NCBI GenBank assembly: GCA_001516045.1
Contig: LOEW01000166.1
Coordinates: 47,220 to 79,219, forward strand
From: Desulfosporosinus sp. BRH_c37
GTDB lineage: Bacteria; Bacillota; Desulfitobacteriia; Desulfitobacteriales; Desulfitobacteriaceae
Reading direction: 5' to 3'
DNA length: 32,000 bases
Shown here piece by piece: positions 921 to 31,061 of this stretch. The position numbers and the translations under genes were made by a program. Position 1 is the first letter of the stretch. Every line of letters starts with the position of its first letter. The notes below the pieces were generated by a model that was given only the letters and a program-made list of their open reading frames with translations, was not told the DNA's origin and searched no databases.

Positions 921-2138
921 TTATTCGTCATCGACAATACAACCATCTAGGGAAGGCAATTCCTCCTCTTGATATTGTGGTTCTCCAAGGGCATTGATTT
1001 GAATAGTCCCGGCCTGTCCGTACTGATAAAGCTGATCCAACACTTCTACGGCAGCACGAATTCTGGTTCTTAACAGGTATCCTCTATTTTCCGAGGCTTT
1101 TAGCACTTCTCTTACATCAATCTTCGGTTGCCAATCATAGGCTTGACCGTGAAAATCCTGAACCTGTTTAAGAACAGCCAAGATTTCATCCTGGTTCAGC
1201 GGTTGAAGCTGGGGTGCGGAAATAATAGCGTTGATTACTTTTTCGATGGGCTCCCGTTGGGCACGATCCACATAAGTTGTGGCGAGGTTTTCAAACTCAT
1301 GCTTAGACTCTATGACATCCTCTTGATACGATGCCCCCAAAGCGAACATGGTAAAAGTTGATTCGAGGCGCGAATATTTATCAGGAAACAAGAACGATGC
1401 CATATTATTATAAGCCTTGAGGCGGGCTTTTTTGCCCAGACGGCCGACCAATTCTGTTTCATCAAACAAGATAACCCAACCATTGTAACCCAGCAATTTA
1501 AAGAGGTGACTTAACATCGTGTAGTAATCCATACTGTGACGAGTTTTACTAAAGGGAACGGCGTACTTGACTGTTTGGGCAAAAATCCGTTTGTAGATCT
1601 GTCTCAAAAGGGCATTATTGATAAAGTCACCCTCTAGATCCGACATGAGTAGGTATTTTTCATCCGAATCATCCACGTTTAGAAAGGACCGCAAAACGAA
1701 AAACAACTTGTCAGTCTCTAAGTGTTTACTGGTAAAGGAGATCATATCTTGAGCAATGGGATTATTCGGAGTAATATCTTGCATGATATGTTGAAATCCT
1801 GGTTGCAGACGCCCTGGCAGGTATGTATTGCTAACCAGTTTCTGATAGGCTAGATAAAGTTTGTCAAACGGGGTTTCCTTACTTAGGGAAACCAGGCTGA
1901 CCACCATATTGTTGCTATGGGCTAGATTAAACACAGTATTTAAAAGGTGGGTTTTACCCTCTCCGTACTTTCCAGAAACAACCATACCAGTGGATTCTCC
2001 GGTGTCTCTAATCCGGTCTAACTTGCGGGAGATCTGCTCCATTAATTCTGGACGGGCTGAGGAGAAGTAATGTCCAACCGCCCGAGAAGACACTCCCGAA
2101 CGCAAGGCTTCAATAACTCGCTGCGCTTCAAAATCCAT
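921..2138 (-). CDS. P-loop ATPase, BrxD/DUF2791-like (downstream paralogue of a tandem pair)
   Basis: 405-aa ORF. N-terminal AQRVIEALRSGVSS segment, Walker A GKYGEGKT, Walker B VILFDE. The ATG at 2136-2138 shares one base with the TAA (2138-2140) of the upstream paralogue (TAATG), indicating translational coupling. Confidence 0.75.
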   Translation of the reverse strand: MDFEAQRVIEALRSGVSSRAVGHYFSSARPELMEQISRKLDRIRDTGESTGMVVSGKYGEGKTHLLNTVFNLAHSNNMVVSLVSLSKETPFDKLYLAYQKLVSNTYLPGRLQPGFQHIMQDITPNNPIAQDMISFTSKHLETDKLFFVLRSFLNVDDSDEKYLLMSDLEGDFINNALLRQIYKRIFAQTVKYAVPFSKTRHSMDYYTMLSHLFKLLGYNGWVILFDETELVGRLGKKARLKAYNNMASFLFPDKYSRLESTFTMFALGASYQEDVIESKHEFENLATTYVDRAQREPIEKVINAIISAPQLQPLNQDEILAVLKQVQDFHGQAYDWQPKIDVREVLKASENRGYLLRTRIRAAVEVLDQLYQYGQAGTIQINALGEPQYQEEELPSLDGCIVDDE

Positions 2139-3358
2139 TATTCTGCTCCTTCCTGCAAAGTAGTGAAGGCTACTTTTCGAGGCAACGAAACTTTGCCAAA
2201 CCGGGACCGGGCGTGGAGTTCTTCCGCCGTGTTCAAGCTTATAGGAGTGGCCCCTGCATCGAAACGGTTTATGACCTGAGCCAGACGGGTGGACATTTTT
2301 AGGATATTTTCTGGTGTATAGACCTCATCAATCAGACGATCTAAATCCACAATATCAGCGAATCGGTTAAAACGCTTGCCTTCGATTTCATTTTGTATAC
2401 GCATCCACAACGCCTGATAAGACTTCATACCCCTCACATCATCATCGATTAGACTGCGATCGAACGAAAAAACGAACATGGTGTGCTTTAAGGTGTCAAT
2501 TTCATCGATCAATTCGCGAATACTCTCATAGGCGTCTTCCCGTTTTAAACGAGAATAACGAATAGCTTCTGCACTATCTGCGCTCACAAGAACTTCCATG
2601 TTATCAATAGATATCACCAGACCCTTGAATCCGGCCAGACAGCAGACCTCTACGAGGGAACGCAGCATATGCCGGGCATTATATTTGGTGATTTTACTCG
2701 GCGACAAACCCAGACGGCGCAGGGAAGACAATTTAGCTTCCCGACTTCCCTCCAGCCATAACATCAACAGCTTACAGTTGGCTTCTTCCAAGGTGGGGTG
2801 TCCCAAAATTCCGCCGGTCAACATGGCGCAGGCAAGAGCAAAGTTATTATCAATTAGGGGGTTGTCGAGAAAGAGCTTTTCCAACTGGTGCCTTATCTCC
2901 CGCTTGGTCAACGGCTCTAGCAGTCCCTGGCTGGATAAGTAATCCGCAAAGCTAATATTTTCTGGAATAATCTCGGGATCATACCCCAACTGCCGGATAA
3001 CCTCGTGGCTGCAGAGTTGTAAGCGTGCCAGTAGATTCACCTGGTGCAATATTGCTGTATAGATTTCCTTAAAATCATGAAGCCAGAGTTCCCGAGCTGA
3101 GAGATCAACCGAGATATAGCCCATGTTTTCTGCTTCCATAGCCAATATTTCCAGGAAATGTGTCTTTCCGCTCCCAGTACGTCCCGTCACGAACTTTATC
3201 TTGCTGCCTCCCTTAGCCAGATAGTTCTCCAGATATTTTTCCTTCCAAAAATCCATAATAAACTCGCTGCCCACAGATATTTCTTGCAGGATTTCGCGAT
3301 TACCTGGAGCTTGTCCCTTCCTTAAACTGGCTAGGGCAGCTTTAATATCATTTTTCAA
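2138..3358 (-). CDS. P-loop ATPase, BrxD/DUF2791-like (upstream paralogue, atypical Walker B)
   Basis: 406-aa ORF. TTG start at 3356-3358 with GGGAGG 8 nt upstream. ALASLRKGQAP segment and Walker A GRTGSGKT. The Walker-B-like strand is LVISIDN (Asp-Asn instead of Asp-Glu). Confidence 0.72.
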   Translation of the reverse strand: MKNDIKAALASLRKGQAPGNREILQEISVGSEFIMDFWKEKYLENYLAKGGSKIKFVTGRTGSGKTHFLEILAMEAENMGYISVDLSARELWLHDFKEIYTAILHQVNLLARLQLCSHEVIRQLGYDPEIIPENISFADYLSSQGLLEPLTKREIRHQLEKLFLDNPLIDNNFALACAMLTGGILGHPTLEEANCKLLMLWLEGSREAKLSSLRRLGLSPSKITKYNARHMLRSLVEVCCLAGFKGLVISIDNMEVLVSADSAEAIRYSRLKREDAYESIRELIDEIDTLKHTMFVFSFDRSLIDDDVRGMKSYQALWMRIQNEIEGKRFNRFADIVDLDRLIDEVYTPENILKMSTRLAQVINRFDAGATPISLNTAEELHARSRFGKVSLPRKVAFTTLQEGAE

Positions 3359-3383
3359 GTCTATTACCTCCCATCAAATTGAT

Positions 3384-3411
3384 GTTCGAGGCACGAAGTT
3401 CGAGGTTCGAG
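3384..3411. repeat. Heptamer direct repeats GTTCGAG / GCACGAA / GTTCGAG / GTTCGAG in the spacer between the 273-aa gene and the first ATPase gene
   Basis: Read directly: three exact GTTCGAG copies at 3384-3390, 3398-3404 and 3405-3411, with one diverged unit between them. Each contains the self-complementary TTCGA core, so alternative hairpins are possible. Confidence 0.6.
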
Positions 3412-3486
3412 TGCATATGCTTTTTTAGGCCTTGAATGACTTCGTAGCGAGTTTTCGTTCTCTGATGCATGCATATTTTCATCAAA

Positions 3487-4308
3487 TCAGCTCAATTCCG
3501 GTAACGGTACCGTAGGTGCTGTAGTCCCGAAAAAACGGATGGTTGCCAAATACTGTTCCCGACCATCCTGATCAAGGATGCGGATAGCCTTGTTGATATT
3601 GCGACTGGGGCCAAATTGAAACTTCCGTCCATCCTCACAGGTACGTAGGTCAGCTGCATAAAGGCGGGCCAAGTCGAAGGCAAAACTCTGCAGGTCATAA
3701 TCTTTACGGAAGCGACGCATCGGGGTTAAAAGGGTGTAAAGACTCTTTAGATAAATATCCCCGACCGCCGAAGTTAATAATTTACCCTGGTTTTGCTTTA
3801 GTAGCATCAAATCATAAGCGGTAGCAAGCTCTTTGACGAAGCTCTTGGGATCAAAAGTAGCCTTCAATAGTTTATCCCTACTGGCCTTAACGTCTTGCAC
3901 AAAGGCCAGAGGGCGAAAGCATTGGACGCGTTTTCGATCAAGGTATAAGTCCAGATTCTCTGGATCGATCCTGACCCGGAAAGGAAACATCTCATAAATT
4001 GGATAATCTCCTTTAACGTCCACCTCTAGCCGATCGCAATGAGCTAGCAATTGTTCCACAAAGCTGCCATTTTCCACATAGTCGCGAATCCCGAATTCAT
4101 CAACTTGATTCTGCATCTCTTCCATCAAGGTTTCCTGTTCCTTCAGATAAGTACGCATGGAGGACAGATCCCTAGTCCAGCTCTTAAGATCACCCTTCTC
4201 CATATTTTTGCTCAAGCTCTTAAATAGTTTTTGCTGACTGTTAATCTTATCCTTGAGCTCTTTTTCGACGCTTAACATTTGTTTATATAAGTCTTCATAA
4301 TCCGTCAT
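3487..4308 (-). CDS. Hypothetical 273-aa protein with a coiled-coil-like N-terminus; first gene of the ATPase operon
   Basis: ATG at 4306-4308 with GAAGGAGA 7 nt upstream. Residues 1-70 are K/E/Q/L-rich (YKQMLSVEKELKDKINSQQKLFKSL...EQETLMEEMQNQVDEF). I recognise no catalytic motif. Confidence 0.7.
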   Translation of the reverse strand: MTDYEDLYKQMLSVEKELKDKINSQQKLFKSLSKNMEKGDLKSWTRDLSSMRTYLKEQETLMEEMQNQVDEFGIRDYVENGSFVEQLLAHCDRLEVDVKGDYPIYEMFPFRVRIDPENLDLYLDRKRVQCFRPLAFVQDVKASRDKLLKATFDPKSFVKELATAYDLMLLKQNQGKLLTSAVGDIYLKSLYTLLTPMRRFRKDYDLQSFAFDLARLYAADLRTCEDGRKFQFGPSRNINKAIRILDQDGREQYLATIRFFGTTAPTVPLPELS

Positions 4309-4344
4309 AGTTCTGTCTCCTTCTTCAATTTTTTAGGGAACGCT

Positions 4345-4359
4345 CACTTCATTGAAGTG
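4345..4359. promoter_or_regulatory. Perfect 15-bp palindrome CACTTCAtTGAAGTG in the divergent control region; candidate operator
   Basis: 7-bp arms around one central base, about 37 nt upstream of the 273-aa gene start, inside the 277-bp region shared with the helicase gene. Confidence 0.35.
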
Positions 4360-4585
4360 GGCATCTCGCAGTTGGATGAATCAAATTACTAATAATCATC
4401 CTAATTTTCATGAGAATGAATGGCTTTGATTCCAAAATCGAATGATTAGTTTTCTTTTTTTGCTAGTGTTCGACACAAAACAGAGTTTTCCTTCCCTGCT
4501 TGCCTCAATAATCCAATAATGTCATACTAATACCATAACAAATATTACATCTAGACAACCATGAGGGAGACTGGGGAGAGAAAGT

Positions 4586-6238
4586 ATGACTTTTCATAAG
4601 CAAACTTCCGCAGAGGCAGCCAAATCCACTTCAAACGTATATGGTCAAGTGAAAAAGCCATTATTTGCCTGGCAGAAGGAATGCCTAGATATCTGGGTTC
4701 AGAATCAAGGCAAAGGGGTTGTGAATGTCGTTACCGGAGCAGGCAAAACGATCCTAGCCTTAGGAGCCATCGCTAGGCTGGAATACATATTGCGTGCAAA
4801 ACAAGCACTAGCCTTAAAAATAAAAATTGTTGTACCCAAGGTTTTTCTGGCAAATCAATGGGTTAAGAGTCTCCAAGACGATCTCTCTGTTTCTAGGGAT
4901 GACATAGGGTTATACTCCGGGATTCACAAAGACCCTCCCTCTCGTAAATATATGATTTATGTGGTAAACTCAGCCCGCAACACGTTAACAAAGCATATTC
5001 TAGACGATTATCATCAGGGTAGCTCCATCTTGTTGATCGCAGATGAATGTCATCACTATTGCAGCCCGGAAAATTCGCGCATATTTAATTTTATGGCTCA
5101 AATCCTAATTGAAGACCAGGCCACACATTACTATGCACTTGGTTTATCCGCCACCCCGGAAACTGCAACCTTTAACCAAACGCTGCTTCCCGCCTTGGGG
5201 CCAGAGATCTTCAAATACAGCTTTGTCGAGGCCTTGAATGCTAATATCATAAGTTCCTTTGCGATCTTTAACATAAAGTTAGCTTTCACTCCGGACGAAG
5301 AGCACCAGTATTTGGATTTAAGCGAACAACTGACGCATGTCCGAGAAAGCCTTATGAATCGCTGTCCTTTCCTGAAAGGCTTAACCAGACTTCAGTATTT
5401 TGCCAGCCTAGAGCAATTGGCGCAAAGTTCTGAGGATGACACCATAGCAGCTCTTGCCCGTTCGCTACTCATGCTTGCCACCAAGCGCAAAGATTTGGTC
5501 TACAGGGCCGAAGCCAGGATAAGCTGTGTCAGCAATCTAGTGACACAGCTCCCGCGAAGTTCAAAGTTCTTGGTCTTTTGCGAAAGAATTGTTGTGGCGA
5601 ACACAATTTATGAACAGTTACAATACCTGTTTCCTGGACAGGTCGGGCGTTATCATTCCGAAATGGACGAGTGGAGTCGCAAAGAAATCCTTCGTAAATA
5701 TCAAGACGCACAAATTCGCATCCTCGTAAGCTGCCGCGCTCTCGATGAAGGGTTGAATGTACCCTCTACAGACATCGGGATCGTCGCATCCTCCACCAGC
5801 AGCAACCGACAGCGCATCCAGAGATTGGGTCGAATCCTGCGCCAGTCTGGCATGAACCGCACCGCCAAACTTTATTACCTATATATTGGTGCATCCAACG
5901 AAGAAAAGGACTTACTGTCCGAGATTTCTCAGGACCTGACAGGGATAATTCCCATCCTGGACATGGAATATGATCAAGATAGCCAGACCTTTCAGCATTC
6001 CTCCTACCAAGCCTTGGCTAACCAAGTCATAGCCTATACTCAGCACAAATGCTGGAGCGCGGAGATCATTGCAGAGATCACTAAAAACCTAGAGCGAGGT
6101 ATGCTGGGATGCGATTGGTGGCTCTCCGAGCAAAACTGCCGCTTGAAAATTCAGAATGCCCCCTCTCGTTCAGAACAGAATTACTGGATTAGCATGCGCT
6201 TACTTGTACAGGCAAGTCTTGGCCGGTTGGCCGAATAA
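4586..6238 (+). CDS. Superfamily 2 helicase (ResIII/DEAD-DEAH type)
   Basis: 550-aa ORF with GGGGAGAG 5 nt upstream of the ATG. Motif I VVTGAGKT, motif II LLIADECHH, motif III LSATPE, motif VI QRIQRLGRILR. The C-terminal ~110 aa have no motif I recognise. Confidence 0.8.
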   Translation: MTFHKQTSAEAAKSTSNVYGQVKKPLFAWQKECLDIWVQNQGKGVVNVVTGAGKTILALGAIARLEYILRAKQALALKIKIVVPKVFLANQWVKSLQDDLSVSRDDIGLYSGIHKDPPSRKYMIYVVNSARNTLTKHILDDYHQGSSILLIADECHHYCSPENSRIFNFMAQILIEDQATHYYALGLSATPETATFNQTLLPALGPEIFKYSFVEALNANIISSFAIFNIKLAFTPDEEHQYLDLSEQLTHVRESLMNRCPFLKGLTRLQYFASLEQLAQSSEDDTIAALARSLLMLATKRKDLVYRAEARISCVSNLVTQLPRSSKFLVFCERIVVANTIYEQLQYLFPGQVGRYHSEMDEWSRKEILRKYQDAQIRILVSCRALDEGLNVPSTDIGIVASSTSSNRQRIQRLGRILRQSGMNRTAKLYYLYIGASNEEKDLLSEISQDLTGIIPILDMEYDQDSQTFQHSSYQALANQVIAYTQHKCWSAEIIAEITKNLERGMLGCDWWLSEQNCRLKIQNAPSRSEQNYWISMRLLVQASLGRLAE

Positions 6239-6245
6239 TAGTAAC

Positions 6246-6285
6246 AACAAGTCCCCGACAAATGCTAGCTTGTCAGGGACTTGAT
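6246..6285. terminator. Hairpin between the convergent helicase and ligase genes; near-copy of the 851-887 hairpin
   Basis: ACAAGTCCCCGACAA (6247-6261), loop ATGCTAGC, TTGTCAGGGACTTGA (6270-6284). One internal mismatch. Flanking U-tracts are weak on both strands. Confidence 0.5.
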
Positions 6286-13914: not shown

Positions 13915-14430
13915 TCAATGTGCTATGGAATCACTTAATTTCTCAATAAAATGCATAAACTCAGATATCCTTTCGTCTAGGACCTTAGTCATTGAATCTA
14001 TCCCCTTCGCTAAGGGCTCCATCTTACGCCAGCGAAGCTCCGAACCGTAGGAATGCCTGAACATATGGCGAAAACGTCGGTATTCATCTAATTCCTCTGC
14101 TAAATCACGTGAGATAATACTCGGTCGTATATCCGGAATCTCTATTGTCATGGAGCGTAATACCTCCCGATGATAGTCTCCACCCGATGTTAATCCTCCA
14201 TCGAAAGCTCTAGAAATACGCTCAAAAACAGATTCTATACCTGTATAAAAATGATGTAAATACCCAGCACAGGCCATCAAATCAGACCCTCGTACCATCC
14301 CTTTCTCATTTTCTAAGACCTGAGTAATTCCTTTAATGTCATCAGTAATTTTTCGTATTGAATTCAAATCATCTTTAATGTCCACAATAAGCCTTTTATA
14401 CTGAACTCGTTTCTTCTCTTTACCCGTCAT
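13915..14430 (-). CDS. HEPN-domain RNase toxin (HepT-like)
   Basis: 171-aa ORF with the Rx4HxY motif in RFRHMFRHSYG (R-HMFR-H-S-Y). The ATG overlaps the stop of the upstream MNT gene (ATGA at 14427-14430). Confidence 0.75.
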   Translation of the reverse strand: MTGKEKKRVQYKRLIVDIKDDLNSIRKITDDIKGITQVLENEKGMVRGSDLMACAGYLHHFYTGIESVFERISRAFDGGLTSGGDYHREVLRSMTIEIPDIRPSIISRDLAEELDEYRRFRHMFRHSYGSELRWRKMEPLAKGIDSMTKVLDERISEFMHFIEKLSDSIAH

Positions 14431-14777
14431 ATCCTCACCCCATCCCTAGCAATACGCTCTTTCATAGATTGTTGAGCAAATTCAAATTGTATGAAATCTA
14501 GAGGAAATGGTTCAGCAATATCTTCGGCAATCCGATATGCCTTAAAGAAATCCTCCTCCGCCAATTGTTTCACCGCAATATCAATATCGGAATCTATGTC
14601 AAATAAATCTGTGGTCAGTGAACCGATAAGATATACTTCTACATCGGGAAATTCTTCTCGAAGAGCCTTGGCGATTTTTTCCGCTATCTCATGTGCTTTC
14701 TTATAGTAAGTTAAGCGTCTTTGTTCCTGAACTTCAATTCTCGATTTATTCCCTACAACGTATGGAGTTATGTCCAT
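14427..14777 (-). CDS. Minimal nucleotidyltransferase (MNT) antitoxin
   Basis: 116-aa ORF with GGAGG 7 nt upstream. Pol-beta-type NTase motif IGSLTTDLFDIDSDIDIAV. Confidence 0.8.
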   Translation of the reverse strand: MDITPYVVGNKSRIEVQEQRRLTYYKKAHEIAEKIAKALREEFPDVEVYLIGSLTTDLFDIDSDIDIAVKQLAEEDFFKAYRIAEDIAEPFPLDFIQFEFAQQSMKERIARDGVRI

Positions 14778-29475: not shown

Positions 29476-29499
29476 GACCCGACAAAAGGAAAAGAAATA

Positions 29500-29615
29500 A
29501 GGAAAGCTGAATCTAGATTTACCTAGAACGGGGGATCTTTTTATGGGGTGAAACGCGTACCACGCGTCGGGCTAACACCTTGTGTCCGAATCCGTCAACT
29601 AACCTCGTAAGCTAA
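29500..29615 (+). promoter_or_regulatory. ydaO/yuaA-type cyclic-di-AMP riboswitch
   Basis: Signature segments GCTGAATC, ACGGGGGA, GGGGTGAA and CCGAATCCGTCAACTAACCTCGTAAGC appear in the canonical order. It lies directly upstream of a cell-wall hydrolase gene, a classic context for this class. Confidence 0.75.
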
Positions 29616-29630
29616 GAAGGGTGTAACTAA

Positions 29631-31061
29631 ATGCATTTGAATTTCAATTGGTCTCAGAAAAAAGTACTCGTCCAACAATTGTTCCGTGTCAATCTACAAA
29701 AAATATCCTGGAAATCACCGCGTGTCCTCGGTAGTATCTCGATGACAATTATCCTAACTGGCGGGCTCACTTATTATTTTTCGACAACGACTTCTGCTGC
29801 TGCCGTGATACTTAACGGTCAACAGCTTGGCTTAGTTCAAAATGTTAACATTGGTAAAAATCTCGTTGAAACGACTTTGAAACAACATGGCGAGTCCTTT
29901 GGGCTAAGCGCCAAAACTCATGACCAAATTACCTATAAAAATGTCAGGGTTAATCCAGCAGTCTATCTTGAATCTACTTTGAGCGATAAGACGTTGGAAG
30001 ATAAGTTAACGTTTTATCTTGAAGGTTATAAGTTAGAAGCAGACGGTTCTGTGATAGCAGTTTTACCTAGCAAAGAAGCTTCTGATCAAGTTCTAAAAGA
30101 CTATCAAGACTATTTTGTTAAACCCAGTAATGAGAATAAGGTAACTACCGTTAATTTTACCGAAAAGATTAGTGTCGAAGCGGCAGAAGTCCAACCTGAT
30201 CAAATGAAAAAAACCGATCAAGCTTTAAAAATGTTGATTGACGGTAAAATAAGGACCAGGGATTACACTGTCCTAGCTAATGATTCTTGGTGGCTTATTG
30301 CCCGCAAAAATAATATGTTGACGGATGAAGTTTTGGCTAGTAATTCGGGGGCAACCAAGGATACGAAGTTGAAGCCGGGCCAAATTATTAAACTTGTTGA
30401 TTCAACACCCTATCTTACTGTCGTAAGTCAGGGAACCTATTCAGGTCCTGAAACAATTCCCTATGATGTCGTATCAAAAGTTGATAACAGTTTAGGAGTC
30501 GGCCAAACCAAGGTCATCAAACAAGGTAGTACTGGTTCAAAAGTAGTTACATATTCTTATGTGCAAAAAAATGGCATAGACGTTTCCAAGCAGGTATTAG
30601 ATGAAAAGATCACTCAAACTCCTGTCAATCAAGTCATCGCTAAAGGCCCCAATAGTCGACCTGTCAATGTAGCGTTTGCAGCTTCTCGTGGAAGTAATGG
30701 TTCTTCTTCCATCGTAAATCGCGCCCTTAGTTTGCAAGGGACACCCTATGTTTTTGGCGGAACAACTCGTAGTGGCTTTGACTGTTCGGGTTTTACCAAG
30801 TATGTCCTCGCCAGTGCTGGGATATCCCTTCCTCGTACATCTTATGCGCAATTCGCTTCAGGATCTTTGGTCGGTAAGAATAGTCTTCAGCCGGGTGACC
30901 TAGTTTTCTTTTCGACTTATTCTTCAGGTGCCTCTCATGTGGGCATTTATATCGGGGGAGGCCGTTTTGTTCATGCCAGTAACCCCACTAGTGATGTTAA
31001 AGTATCAAGCCTTAGTGAAAGTTTTTATGCTTCCCGTTATCTCGGAGCACGCAGGTATTAG
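29631..31061 (+). CDS. Secreted or anchored cell-wall hydrolase: N-terminal TM, LysM, G5 and C-terminal NlpC/P60 domains
   Basis: 476-aa ORF. LysM (YTVLANDSWWLIARKNNM...LKPGQIIKL). G5 (IPYDVVSKVDNSLGVGQTKVIKQGSTGSKVVTYSYVQKNG). NlpC/P60 (GTPYVFGGTTRSGFDCSGF...HVGIYIGGGRFVHA). Confidence 0.85.
   Translation: MHLNFNWSQKKVLVQQLFRVNLQKISWKSPRVLGSISMTIILTGGLTYYFSTTTSAAAVILNGQQLGLVQNVNIGKNLVETTLKQHGESFGLSAKTHDQITYKNVRVNPAVYLESTLSDKTLEDKLTFYLEGYKLEADGSVIAVLPSKEASDQVLKDYQDYFVKPSNENKVTTVNFTEKISVEAAEVQPDQMKKTDQALKMLIDGKIRTRDYTVLANDSWWLIARKNNMLTDEVLASNSGATKDTKLKPGQIIKLVDSTPYLTVVSQGTYSGPETIPYDVVSKVDNSLGVGQTKVIKQGSTGSKVVTYSYVQKNGIDVSKQVLDEKITQTPVNQVIAKGPNSRPVNVAFAASRGSNGSSSIVNRALSLQGTPYVFGGTTRSGFDCSGFTKYVLASAGISLPRTSYAQFASGSLVGKNSLQPGDLVFFSTYSSGASHVGIYIGGGRFVHASNPTSDVKVSSLSESFYASRYLGARRY

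Follow-up and report, generated by a model that had tools for sequence, protein, structure and literature searches.

A mobile four-gene cassette of Desulfosporosinus combining paired BrxD/SngB-like ATPases with an XPB/PbeA-type helicase, a candidate unnamed defence system

This study concerns a cassette of four genes (positions 921-6238) in a 32-kb stretch of DNA from Desulfosporosinus sp. BRH_c37. The whole of this stretch is called the window below, and loci elsewhere are labelled with L-numbers. Three of the genes lie on the minus strand and encode a protein of no recognisable family (protein X) and two paralogous ATPases (A and B); the fourth is divergent and encodes a helicase of superfamily 2 (SF2). 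On balance, the cassette appears to be an accessory module that is complete in itself and moves horizontally; most likely it is an unnamed system against phages or other foreign DNA, of the same design class as Shango and BrxD-BrxHI. The defence reading draws on four points: three of the four proteins are homologous to parts of defence systems, the distribution is sparse and mobile with swapped helicase modules, sister variants carry an Mrr nuclease or lie in a cas locus, and Wadjet systems are found beside the cassette. An initial annotation, made from the sequence only, had proposed a candidate uncharacterised defence cassette. That reading is supported by the present analysis, and a role in defence is what we infer from it.

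Results

Gene content and conservation of the cassette

The cassette consists of the following genes and the control region between its two arms.

921-2138, minus strand: ATPase B gene, 405 amino acids; BrxD/SngB-like AAA+ ATPase assigned to the ORC/Cdc6 type; the catalytic paralogue
2138-3358, minus strand: ATPase A gene, 406 amino acids, TTG start; diverged paralogue with a non-canonical Walker B motif (ID-N)
3487-4308, minus strand: protein X gene, 273 amino acids; first gene of the X-A-B triad
4309-4585: divergent control region of 277 bp between the X gene and the helicase gene
4586-6238, plus strand: helicase gene, 550 amino acids; SF2 helicase/translocase of the XPB/PbeA type, without a nuclease domain

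The four open reading frames (ORFs), the 277-bp gap, the one-base TAATG overlap and the two bracketing hairpins that had been annotated were all located in the sequence, and every motif quoted for the ATPases and the helicase is present. Identical proteins are recorded as KUO75014.1 and KUO75015.1 from Desulfosporosinus sp. BRH_c37, a metagenome-assembled genome from rock porewater. In public annotation, X and the helicase are each a 'hypothetical protein', and the 90% cluster of ATPase B contains relatives named 'BREX system ATP-binding domain-containing protein'.

The distribution of the cassette was investigated in 185,579 genomes, one per species. Relatives of X were found in 193 of them, or about 0.1%, and the carriers are mostly Clostridia (Desulfitobacteriaceae, Syntrophomonadaceae, Lachnospiraceae, Christensenella and others). 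Eighty genome loci were fetched for comparison of gene order. Wherever the contig allows, X is followed by ATPase A and then by ATPase B (80 of 80 loci), and a helicase homologue is present in 73, lying divergent and directly upstream in 69. Seven loci are without a helicase; five of these end at a contig edge, and two (L059 and L062) have none within about 10 kb. A gene set kept across 80 loci rules out chance adjacency. Identity between the window and Lachnospiraceae is 57-64% for ATPase B, the most conserved protein of the cassette, 50-58% for X and ATPase A, and 35-46% for the helicase.

The surroundings of the cassette are not conserved. The flanks are unrelated between loci (576 neighbouring ORFs fell into 486 clusters), and neither serA nor the ligase gene, its neighbours in the window, lies beside it in any other locus; the locus is thus not a fixed core-genome feature. 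Relatives with an X protein of 81-91% identity (85-91% for those in Desulfosporosinus) have the cassette at other chromosomal sites, so that the flanks differ even among close Desulfosporosinus relatives.

The paired ATPases

Both ATPases belong to Pfam PF10923 (BrxC_BrxD, DUF2791; 2e-27 for B and 4e-32 for A), as had been proposed, and each matches the PADLOC models of both BrxD and the Shango ATPase SngB. For B the values are 2.3e-15 (SngB) and 1.5e-13 (BrxD), and for A they are 9e-22 (BrxD) and 4.3e-18 (SngB); the SngB matches of both are partial and no better than those to BrxD. The only match to BrxC is a weak one at the P-loop (0.023, PADLOC). For the NCBIfam BrxD equivalog NF033438, the two ATPases score 48.9 and 75.5 bits against a cutoff of 350 bits. 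Because BrxD and SngB are matched alike and the BrxD scores are below the cutoff, the two proteins are members of the BrxD/SngB family and orthologues of neither. Their assignment to the ORC/Cdc6 clade is based on the PF10923 match together with published work on BrxD (PMC12839542); of the features that mark this clade (Walker A, Walker B, an arginine finger, a C-terminal helical bundle and oligomer formation), Walker A and Walker B were checked, and these are intact in B and deviant in A. No solved relative of the ATPases was found by sequence search. A profile search with A2 for distant named homologues gave only close, unnamed ones.

The two paralogues differ in their catalytic motifs. ATPase B has EALRSG, GKYGEGKTH and VILFDE, and in its 71 orthologues GKYGEGKTH and hhhhD226-E227 are invariant or nearly so. 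ATPase A has SLRKG, GRTGSGKTH and LVISIDN. Among 73 orthologues of A, Walker A is mostly kept (K65 in 63), and the position following the Walker B aspartate is occupied by D (37 proteins), N (29), Q (5) or, in only two cases, E. In distant loci the P-loop of the A paralogue is gone, its place being taken by 'FLVSKQEYLAEQ' in L093, 'ILIPSETEQGEE' in L098 and 'TAGERGTVAE' in L100; the B proteins of all three retain GxxGxGK[ST]H and DE. In L093 the two ATPases are fused into one protein of 752 amino acids, of which the N-terminal half matches the A profile and the C-terminal half the B profile. Gene fusion is classical evidence of physical interaction, and this one argues for physical contact between A and B. 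The earlier suggestion of one hydrolysis-impaired subunit is strengthened by the deviation of Walker B in A (71 of 73 orthologues), by the loss of the P-loop and by the fusion to B. These data support a hetero-oligomer of A and B in which one subunit is probably impaired in hydrolysis. The identity between A and B is only 24% over 90 amino acids (E 2e-4), so the duplication is an ancient one and the two genes are not recent tandem copies.

The helicase

The helicase is an intact SF2 enzyme, as annotated. It carries TGAGKT (motif I), DECH (II), SAT (III) and QRIQRLGRILR (VI), all conserved in 73 helicase orthologues, and Pfam recognises ResIII (5e-20), Helicase_C (5e-14) and ERCC3_RAD25_C. The protein begins 25 amino acids before ResIII and ends in an acidic, tryptophan-rich extension of about 110 amino acids. 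Its best match among defence models is PbeA (1.5e-56 in PADLOC; 1.6e-40 to TIGR04095), and the best-scoring stretches all lie past about position 235 of the PbeA profiles. In PbeA, an HKD endonuclease and an SF2 helicase are joined in one protein (PMC10853773). The cassette helicase matches the helicase part; the nuclease is missing, and Pfam recognises no HKD (PLD) domain in it.

Other helicase models fit less closely. PADLOC also reports matches to DpdE and Cas3. The SngC model is absent among the 25 PADLOC matches listed for the helicase (down to E = 0.0011), and the BrxHI|BrxHII model matches at 1.6e-4 only, over the C-terminal RecA-like domain. Among solved structures, archaeal XPBII (6p4f, 1.7e-24) and Rad25 (2fwr, 3e-19) come nearest. 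The NCBIfam XPB family (NF045503) is matched at 7e-21 with 74.4 bits, its equivalog cutoff being 610.

Protein X

Protein X has no match in Pfam, PADLOC or NCBIfam. TerB, TerB_N and TerB_C were found neither in X at E<=1 nor in 62 diverse members of its family. Its AlphaFold2 model (predicted local distance difference test, pLDDT, 85.8) has a long helical hairpin (residues 4-72), followed by a sheet of five strands accompanied by helices, and a second, small sheet at the C-terminus; for the globular part (residues 88-273) the pLDDT is 83. Thus, the annotation of X as a coiled-coil protein fits the N-terminal hairpin, and the protein as a whole is not purely coiled coil, with an alpha/beta globular part predicted. 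Foldseek searches with the full model and with the globular part gave no significant match in the PDB or BFVD, in agreement with the earlier statement that X has neither a recognisable family nor a TerB domain. The globular part is basic (isoelectric point about 9), a property compatible with nucleic-acid binding.

In all, 797 homologues of X were collected, and a profile search of 1.84 billion cluster representatives yielded 580 cluster representatives (50% identity, E<=1e-3). Nearly all members are stand-alone proteins of about 260 amino acids. One longer member (P0193, 646 amino acids) was considered as an informative fusion; it looks like a chimera of a glycosidase and an X fragment and was set aside.

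Two identities for X were tried and rejected. Close homologues keep D97, E106, D115 and D124-R-K126, and weak Foldseek matches to MutH were seen, in the manner of a PD-(D/E)xK nuclease. The wider family keeps only P109, F157, L161, Y165, Y204, D212 and G249, and no fold match is significant, so this candidate was dismissed. A cryptic TerB-N, TerB-C or Bax1-like protein was discarded for want of a Pfam match in the 62 members and of a sequence or fold match in the PDB.

Sister variants with other helicases

The wider X family shows how the triad is combined with other proteins. In seven of nine distant representatives, one or two PF10923 genes lie directly after X, often overlapping it by 4 nucleotides. 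In L092, X stands alone on a 3-kb contig and is followed by a convergent gene without a Pfam match; in L094 the gene downstream of X is cut by the contig end. Every locus that is informative on this point has at least one PF10923 gene after X. The locus with the A-B fusion (L093) continues with a 183-amino-acid protein, an SNF2 helicase that matches the ZorD (7e-71), DpdE and DrmD models, and HicB. In L098 and L099 a homologous protein of 162 amino acids is found together with an SNF2 helicase; the L098 helicase is complete and carries a fused Mrr_cat nuclease of the restriction type. The L100 triad lies within a cas locus and lacks a helicase of its own, and that of L101 adjoins a PIN gene. 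Since the helicase partner varies between lineages, the cassette of the window is the nuclease-free XPB/PbeA-helicase subtype of a modular family.

Two further observations concern these variants. The small protein of the SNF2 subtype lies between ATPase B and the SNF2 helicase (L093 11267-11818 and L098 3670-4158); its copies of 162-183 amino acids share 37% identity, have no Pfam or PADLOC match and have no counterpart in the window cassette. At L100 3221-10374 the order is Cas3-like helicase, ParE toxin, X, A, B, Cas2 and Cas4, a layout that raises the question of whether the triad cooperates with Cas3.

Neighbouring genes in other loci

The immediate neighbours of the cassette in its close subfamily (368 genes from 76 loci) were scanned with PADLOC. 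A complete Wadjet system adjoins the cassette in two loci. Occasional neighbours are a type III restriction enzyme, PDC-S01, PDC-S27, LmuA, a reverse transcriptase, PsyrT and a DpdF-like protein. PglX, PglZ and BrxC are not among the most frequent PADLOC matches of the 368 neighbours.

One of the two Wadjet loci, in Blautia producta (L007 8999-16500), has the type III genes JetD3, JetA3 and JetB3 immediately downstream of the cassette. A gene of 1476 amino acids occupies the JetC position and is assigned by position alone. On the side opposite to Wadjet, past the helicase gene, are IS66 and IS21 elements.

Control region, spacers and bracketing hairpins

The following elements lie in or around the cassette.

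850-888: left hairpin, terminator-like on the plus strand, with a perfect 17-bp stem, a 5-nucleotide loop and a T-rich tail
4500-4528, plus strand: promoter-like element, TTGCCT, 17 nucleotides, (TGt)CATACT; about 55 nucleotides upstream of the helicase ATG
6248-6283: right hairpin with a 15-bp stem, between the helicase stop and the stop of the convergent ligase gene

The divergent region is partly conserved at the nucleotide level in other loci of Desulfitobacteriaceae and Syntrophomonadaceae. By blastn and an intergenic alignment, a block of about 30 nucleotides is conserved out to Syntrophomonadaceae, and both hexamers of the 4500-4528 element fall inside the conserved block; the element is read here as the putative promoter of the helicase gene. 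On the other arm, the TTG start of ATPase A has a GGGAGG ribosome-binding site 8 nucleotides upstream, and base 2138 is common to the stop codon of ATPase A and the ATG of ATPase B (gaaTAATGgat), an overlap that suggests translational coupling of the two ATPases.

The spacer between X and ATPase A holds three copies of GTTCGAG in 28 nucleotides (3384-3411), out of four in the window. A two-copy GTTCG[A/T]G cluster occurs in the same spacer of Desulfosporosinus L012 and Desulfitobacterium L013, and upstream of X in L015. The cluster may be a regulatory site. A structured RNA was considered for this spacer and rejected, its fold being ordinary (z = -1.0), and Rfam found nothing within the cassette. 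The GC content of the cassette (0.448) is slightly above that of the rest of the window (0.413).

Both hairpins carry the 15-nucleotide arm CAAGTCyCCGACAAA, and their loops differ. Perfect sites of this kind occur in the 32 kb only in these hairpins, with 0.05 expected by chance, and the likeness extends just outside the stem (gtaaCAAGTC in one, gtaacaaCAAGTC in the other). The pair could be a single terminator that was duplicated when the cassette inserted. Metagenome contigs were searched for a serA-hairpin-ligase arrangement lacking the cassette and also for just the left flank, with 0 matches in both cases. The hairpins were also considered as ends of the cassette and rejected, since the motif flanks it in none of the other loci. 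The 375 bp between the serA stop and the left hairpin (475-849) contain no Pfam-recognisable ORF; two small minus-strand ORFs there have no Pfam match, and no nucleotide match was found in other loci. This segment may represent the remains of a gene or of an insertion.

Other features of the window

Most of the window to the right of the cassette (6296-26809) is largely a cluster for anaerobic aromatic-acid catabolism. It includes two phenylacetate-CoA-ligase-like AMP-binding enzymes, a molybdenum hydroxylase, a heterodisulfide-reductase-like Fe-S flavoprotein, UbiD and UbiX-like decarboxylase genes and an XylR_N/V4R/PucR regulator; towards the right end of this segment are a class A penicillin-binding protein, LysR and LrgAB. 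Amid the aromatic-catabolism genes, 7.7 kb from the cassette, lies a toxin-antitoxin pair (13915-14777, minus strand), formed by an MNT-type nucleotidyltransferase gene (14427-14777; NTP_transf_2, 7e-9) and a HepT-like_2 gene (13915-14430, minus strand; 1e-35) that overlap by 4 nucleotides. A full-length cyclic di-AMP riboswitch (RF00379, 89 bits) is found at 29495-29628 on the plus strand, immediately upstream of a gene for a LysM/G5/NlpC-P60 cell-wall hydrolase (29631-31061).

Discussion

Proposed function

Taken as a defence system, the cassette would work through the cooperation of its four products. X, with its coiled-coil hairpin and basic alpha/beta domain, would form with the A/B heterodimer an ATP-dependent sensor-loader complex, in which A may be a regulatory, nucleotide-binding or pseudo-ATPase subunit and B the motor. 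The complex would recognise invading DNA, an infection-specific structure, or a replication or transcription intermediate, and would load or activate the XPB-like translocase on the target DNA. The translocase could then disrupt replication or transcription, by stripping proteins or by unwinding DNA, or it could pass the DNA to a host nuclease; in the sister variant L098 a nuclease is built into the helicase. The role of X is the weakest step of this scheme.

The variants suggest a broader picture, which is offered tentatively and with rather less confidence than the defence reading of the cassette itself. The X-A-B triad may define an undescribed and fairly large prokaryotic immune family, in which a novel-fold protein and an obligate heterodimer of ORC/Cdc6-like ATPases, one active and the other degenerate, would serve as sensor and loader for interchangeable SF2 translocases (XPB/PbeA-type, SNF2, SNF2-Mrr and possibly Cas3). 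The Desulfosporosinus cassette would then be a nuclease-free subtype that relies on translocase action alone.

Several results weigh against a role in defence, or against parts of the mechanism. Defence-like genes are only sporadic beside the cassette, at about 5% of the 368 neighbours by a rough count from which the ABC-transporter false positives mad3, mad8 and AriA had been set aside. One batch of 96 neighbours contained almost none, and the Pfam matches of the neighbours are mostly to transporters and metabolic enzymes. The cassette encodes no effector such as a nuclease or toxin, and it had no match in collections of phages, viral contigs and plasmids. The loader mechanism is drawn by analogy from a computational proposal for BrxD, and the sensor role of X is a guess, because X has no assignable fold.

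Alternative explanations

Part of this evidence would suit a module that acts on the host's own DNA. An XPB-like translocase, an ORC/Cdc6-like loader pair and an adaptor could serve in accessory DNA repair or replication restart at damaged or stalled sites, and the archaeal repair helicases XPBII and Rad25 are indeed the nearest solved relatives of the helicase, with the NCBIfam XPB family matched at 7e-21. The lack of a nuclease or toxin and the mostly ordinary metabolic neighbours fit such a role as well. However, the XPB score of 74 bits is far from the cutoff of 610, no Bax1-like partner is present, and the cassette occurs in about 0.1% of species at sites that differ in close relatives, unlike core repair genes. 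The sister variants with an Mrr restriction-type nuclease or inside cas loci also speak against it, and a repair function is considered unlikely. The shifting location raises a further idea, that of a replication or maintenance module of an integrated mobile element, with an ORC/Cdc6-type initiator pair and a helicase for the element's own replication. ATPases of this clade and helicases are typical parts of replication modules, similar hairpins bracket the cassette, and IS66 and IS21 elements lie nearby in Blautia. Yet no integrase, relaxase, capsid or other element gene travels along in the 80 loci, the flanks are unrelated, the hairpins are not associated with the cassette elsewhere, and searches of phage, viral-contig and plasmid collections gave no match to it. 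Helicases of the XPB/PbeA or SNF2 type are, moreover, not of a replicative kind. This explanation is quite improbable, more so than DNA repair.

The public 'BREX system ATP-binding' annotation, the PF10923 assignment and the matches to BrxD and SngB could also be taken to mean that the cassette is a functionless remnant, left by the decay of a type 2 BREX system (BrxD and BrxHI) or of a Shango system after loss of the TerB gene. Against this, each of the four genes is intact, and motif conservation at 35-64% identity across Desulfitobacteriaceae, Syntrophomonadaceae and Lachnospiraceae indicates purifying selection. BrxD scores of 49 and 75 bits against a cutoff of 350 do not suit a BREX remnant, no PglX, PglZ, PglW, BrxC or TerB gene lies in the window, and X is a dedicated third component that is always present. 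A decayed remnant is thus effectively refuted by the conservation data.

If validated, the unnamed anti-phage or anti-foreign-DNA system proposed here would add a new family to the ATPase-helicase defence class represented by Shango and by BrxD-BrxHI of BREX type 2. The natural variation of this family makes the helicase-loader hypothesis for BrxD-like ATPases directly testable: an active ATPase is paired with a pseudo-ATPase, in one lineage as a fusion, the helicase can be exchanged and may or may not carry a nuclease, and the third component has no assignable fold. In addition, about 580 protein clusters that are now annotated as hypothetical are flagged as belonging to one coherent system.

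Comparison with named systems

No named system in PADLOC or NCBIfam absorbs the gene set, and no description of the X-A-B-helicase combination was found in the literature searched, nor was a mechanism for the ATPase-helicase defence class. The helicase module is specifically related to that of PbeA in the PbeABCD system (CxC-ABC-ATPase-DndE); the HKD nuclease of PbeA is not present in it, and no cassette protein or neighbouring gene matched the PbeC-like CxC-ABC ATPase or the DndE-like PbeD. Archaeal XPB (XPBII/Rad25) offers the nearest solved helicase cores and the example of a nuclease-less translocase that works with partner proteins. The cassette differs from XPB-Bax1 in that its XPB score is far below the equivalog cutoff, its distribution is mobile and sparse, unlike that of a repair gene, and X lacks a match to any PDB chain, in a set that includes 6p4f and 6p4w, so that no Bax1-like partner is recognised. 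ZorD (Zorya), DrmD (DISARM) and DpdE represent the SNF2 type of partner used by the distant triads of L093 and L098. The window's own helicase does not share this likeness, and the other components of Zorya, DISARM and Dpd are absent beside those triads.

The closest designs are those of BREX type 2 and Shango. BrxD, an ORC/Cdc6-type AAA+ ATPase, is closely paired with the BrxHI helicase, and its proposed role is to load or activate this helicase (PMC12839542). The cassette likewise links stand-alone ATPases assigned to this type tightly to an SF2 helicase. However, both ATPases score below the cutoff of the BrxD equivalog, and BrxHI is a Ski2/Lhr-like helicase, which the cassette helicase matches at 1.6e-4 only. 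The core proteins PglX, PglZ, BrxC/PglY and PglW are lacking in the 32-kb window by Pfam; the same scan found no gene for a BREX component, a methyltransferase or a nuclease in the window, in agreement with the initial annotation. X is without a counterpart in BREX.

Shango consists of a TerB protein, an ATPase and a helicase, and gives 10-100-fold protection (PMC10250203). As in the cassette, an AAA+ ATPase of the PF10923 family is combined with an SF2 helicase and a third protein that is not an enzyme, and no nuclease is encoded; both cassette ATPases are of the SngB type (PADLOC SngB, PF10923). The TerB protein SngA has no equivalent, as there is no TerB in X and none is listed among the neighbouring genes, and the helicase is of the XPB/PbeA type instead of the SngC type. 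Shango has a single ATPase gene, whereas the cassette has an ancient asymmetric pair, four genes and a divergent helicase. In sum, judged from its sequence, the cassette is a Shango-like and BrxD-BrxHI-like design that is a member of neither system.

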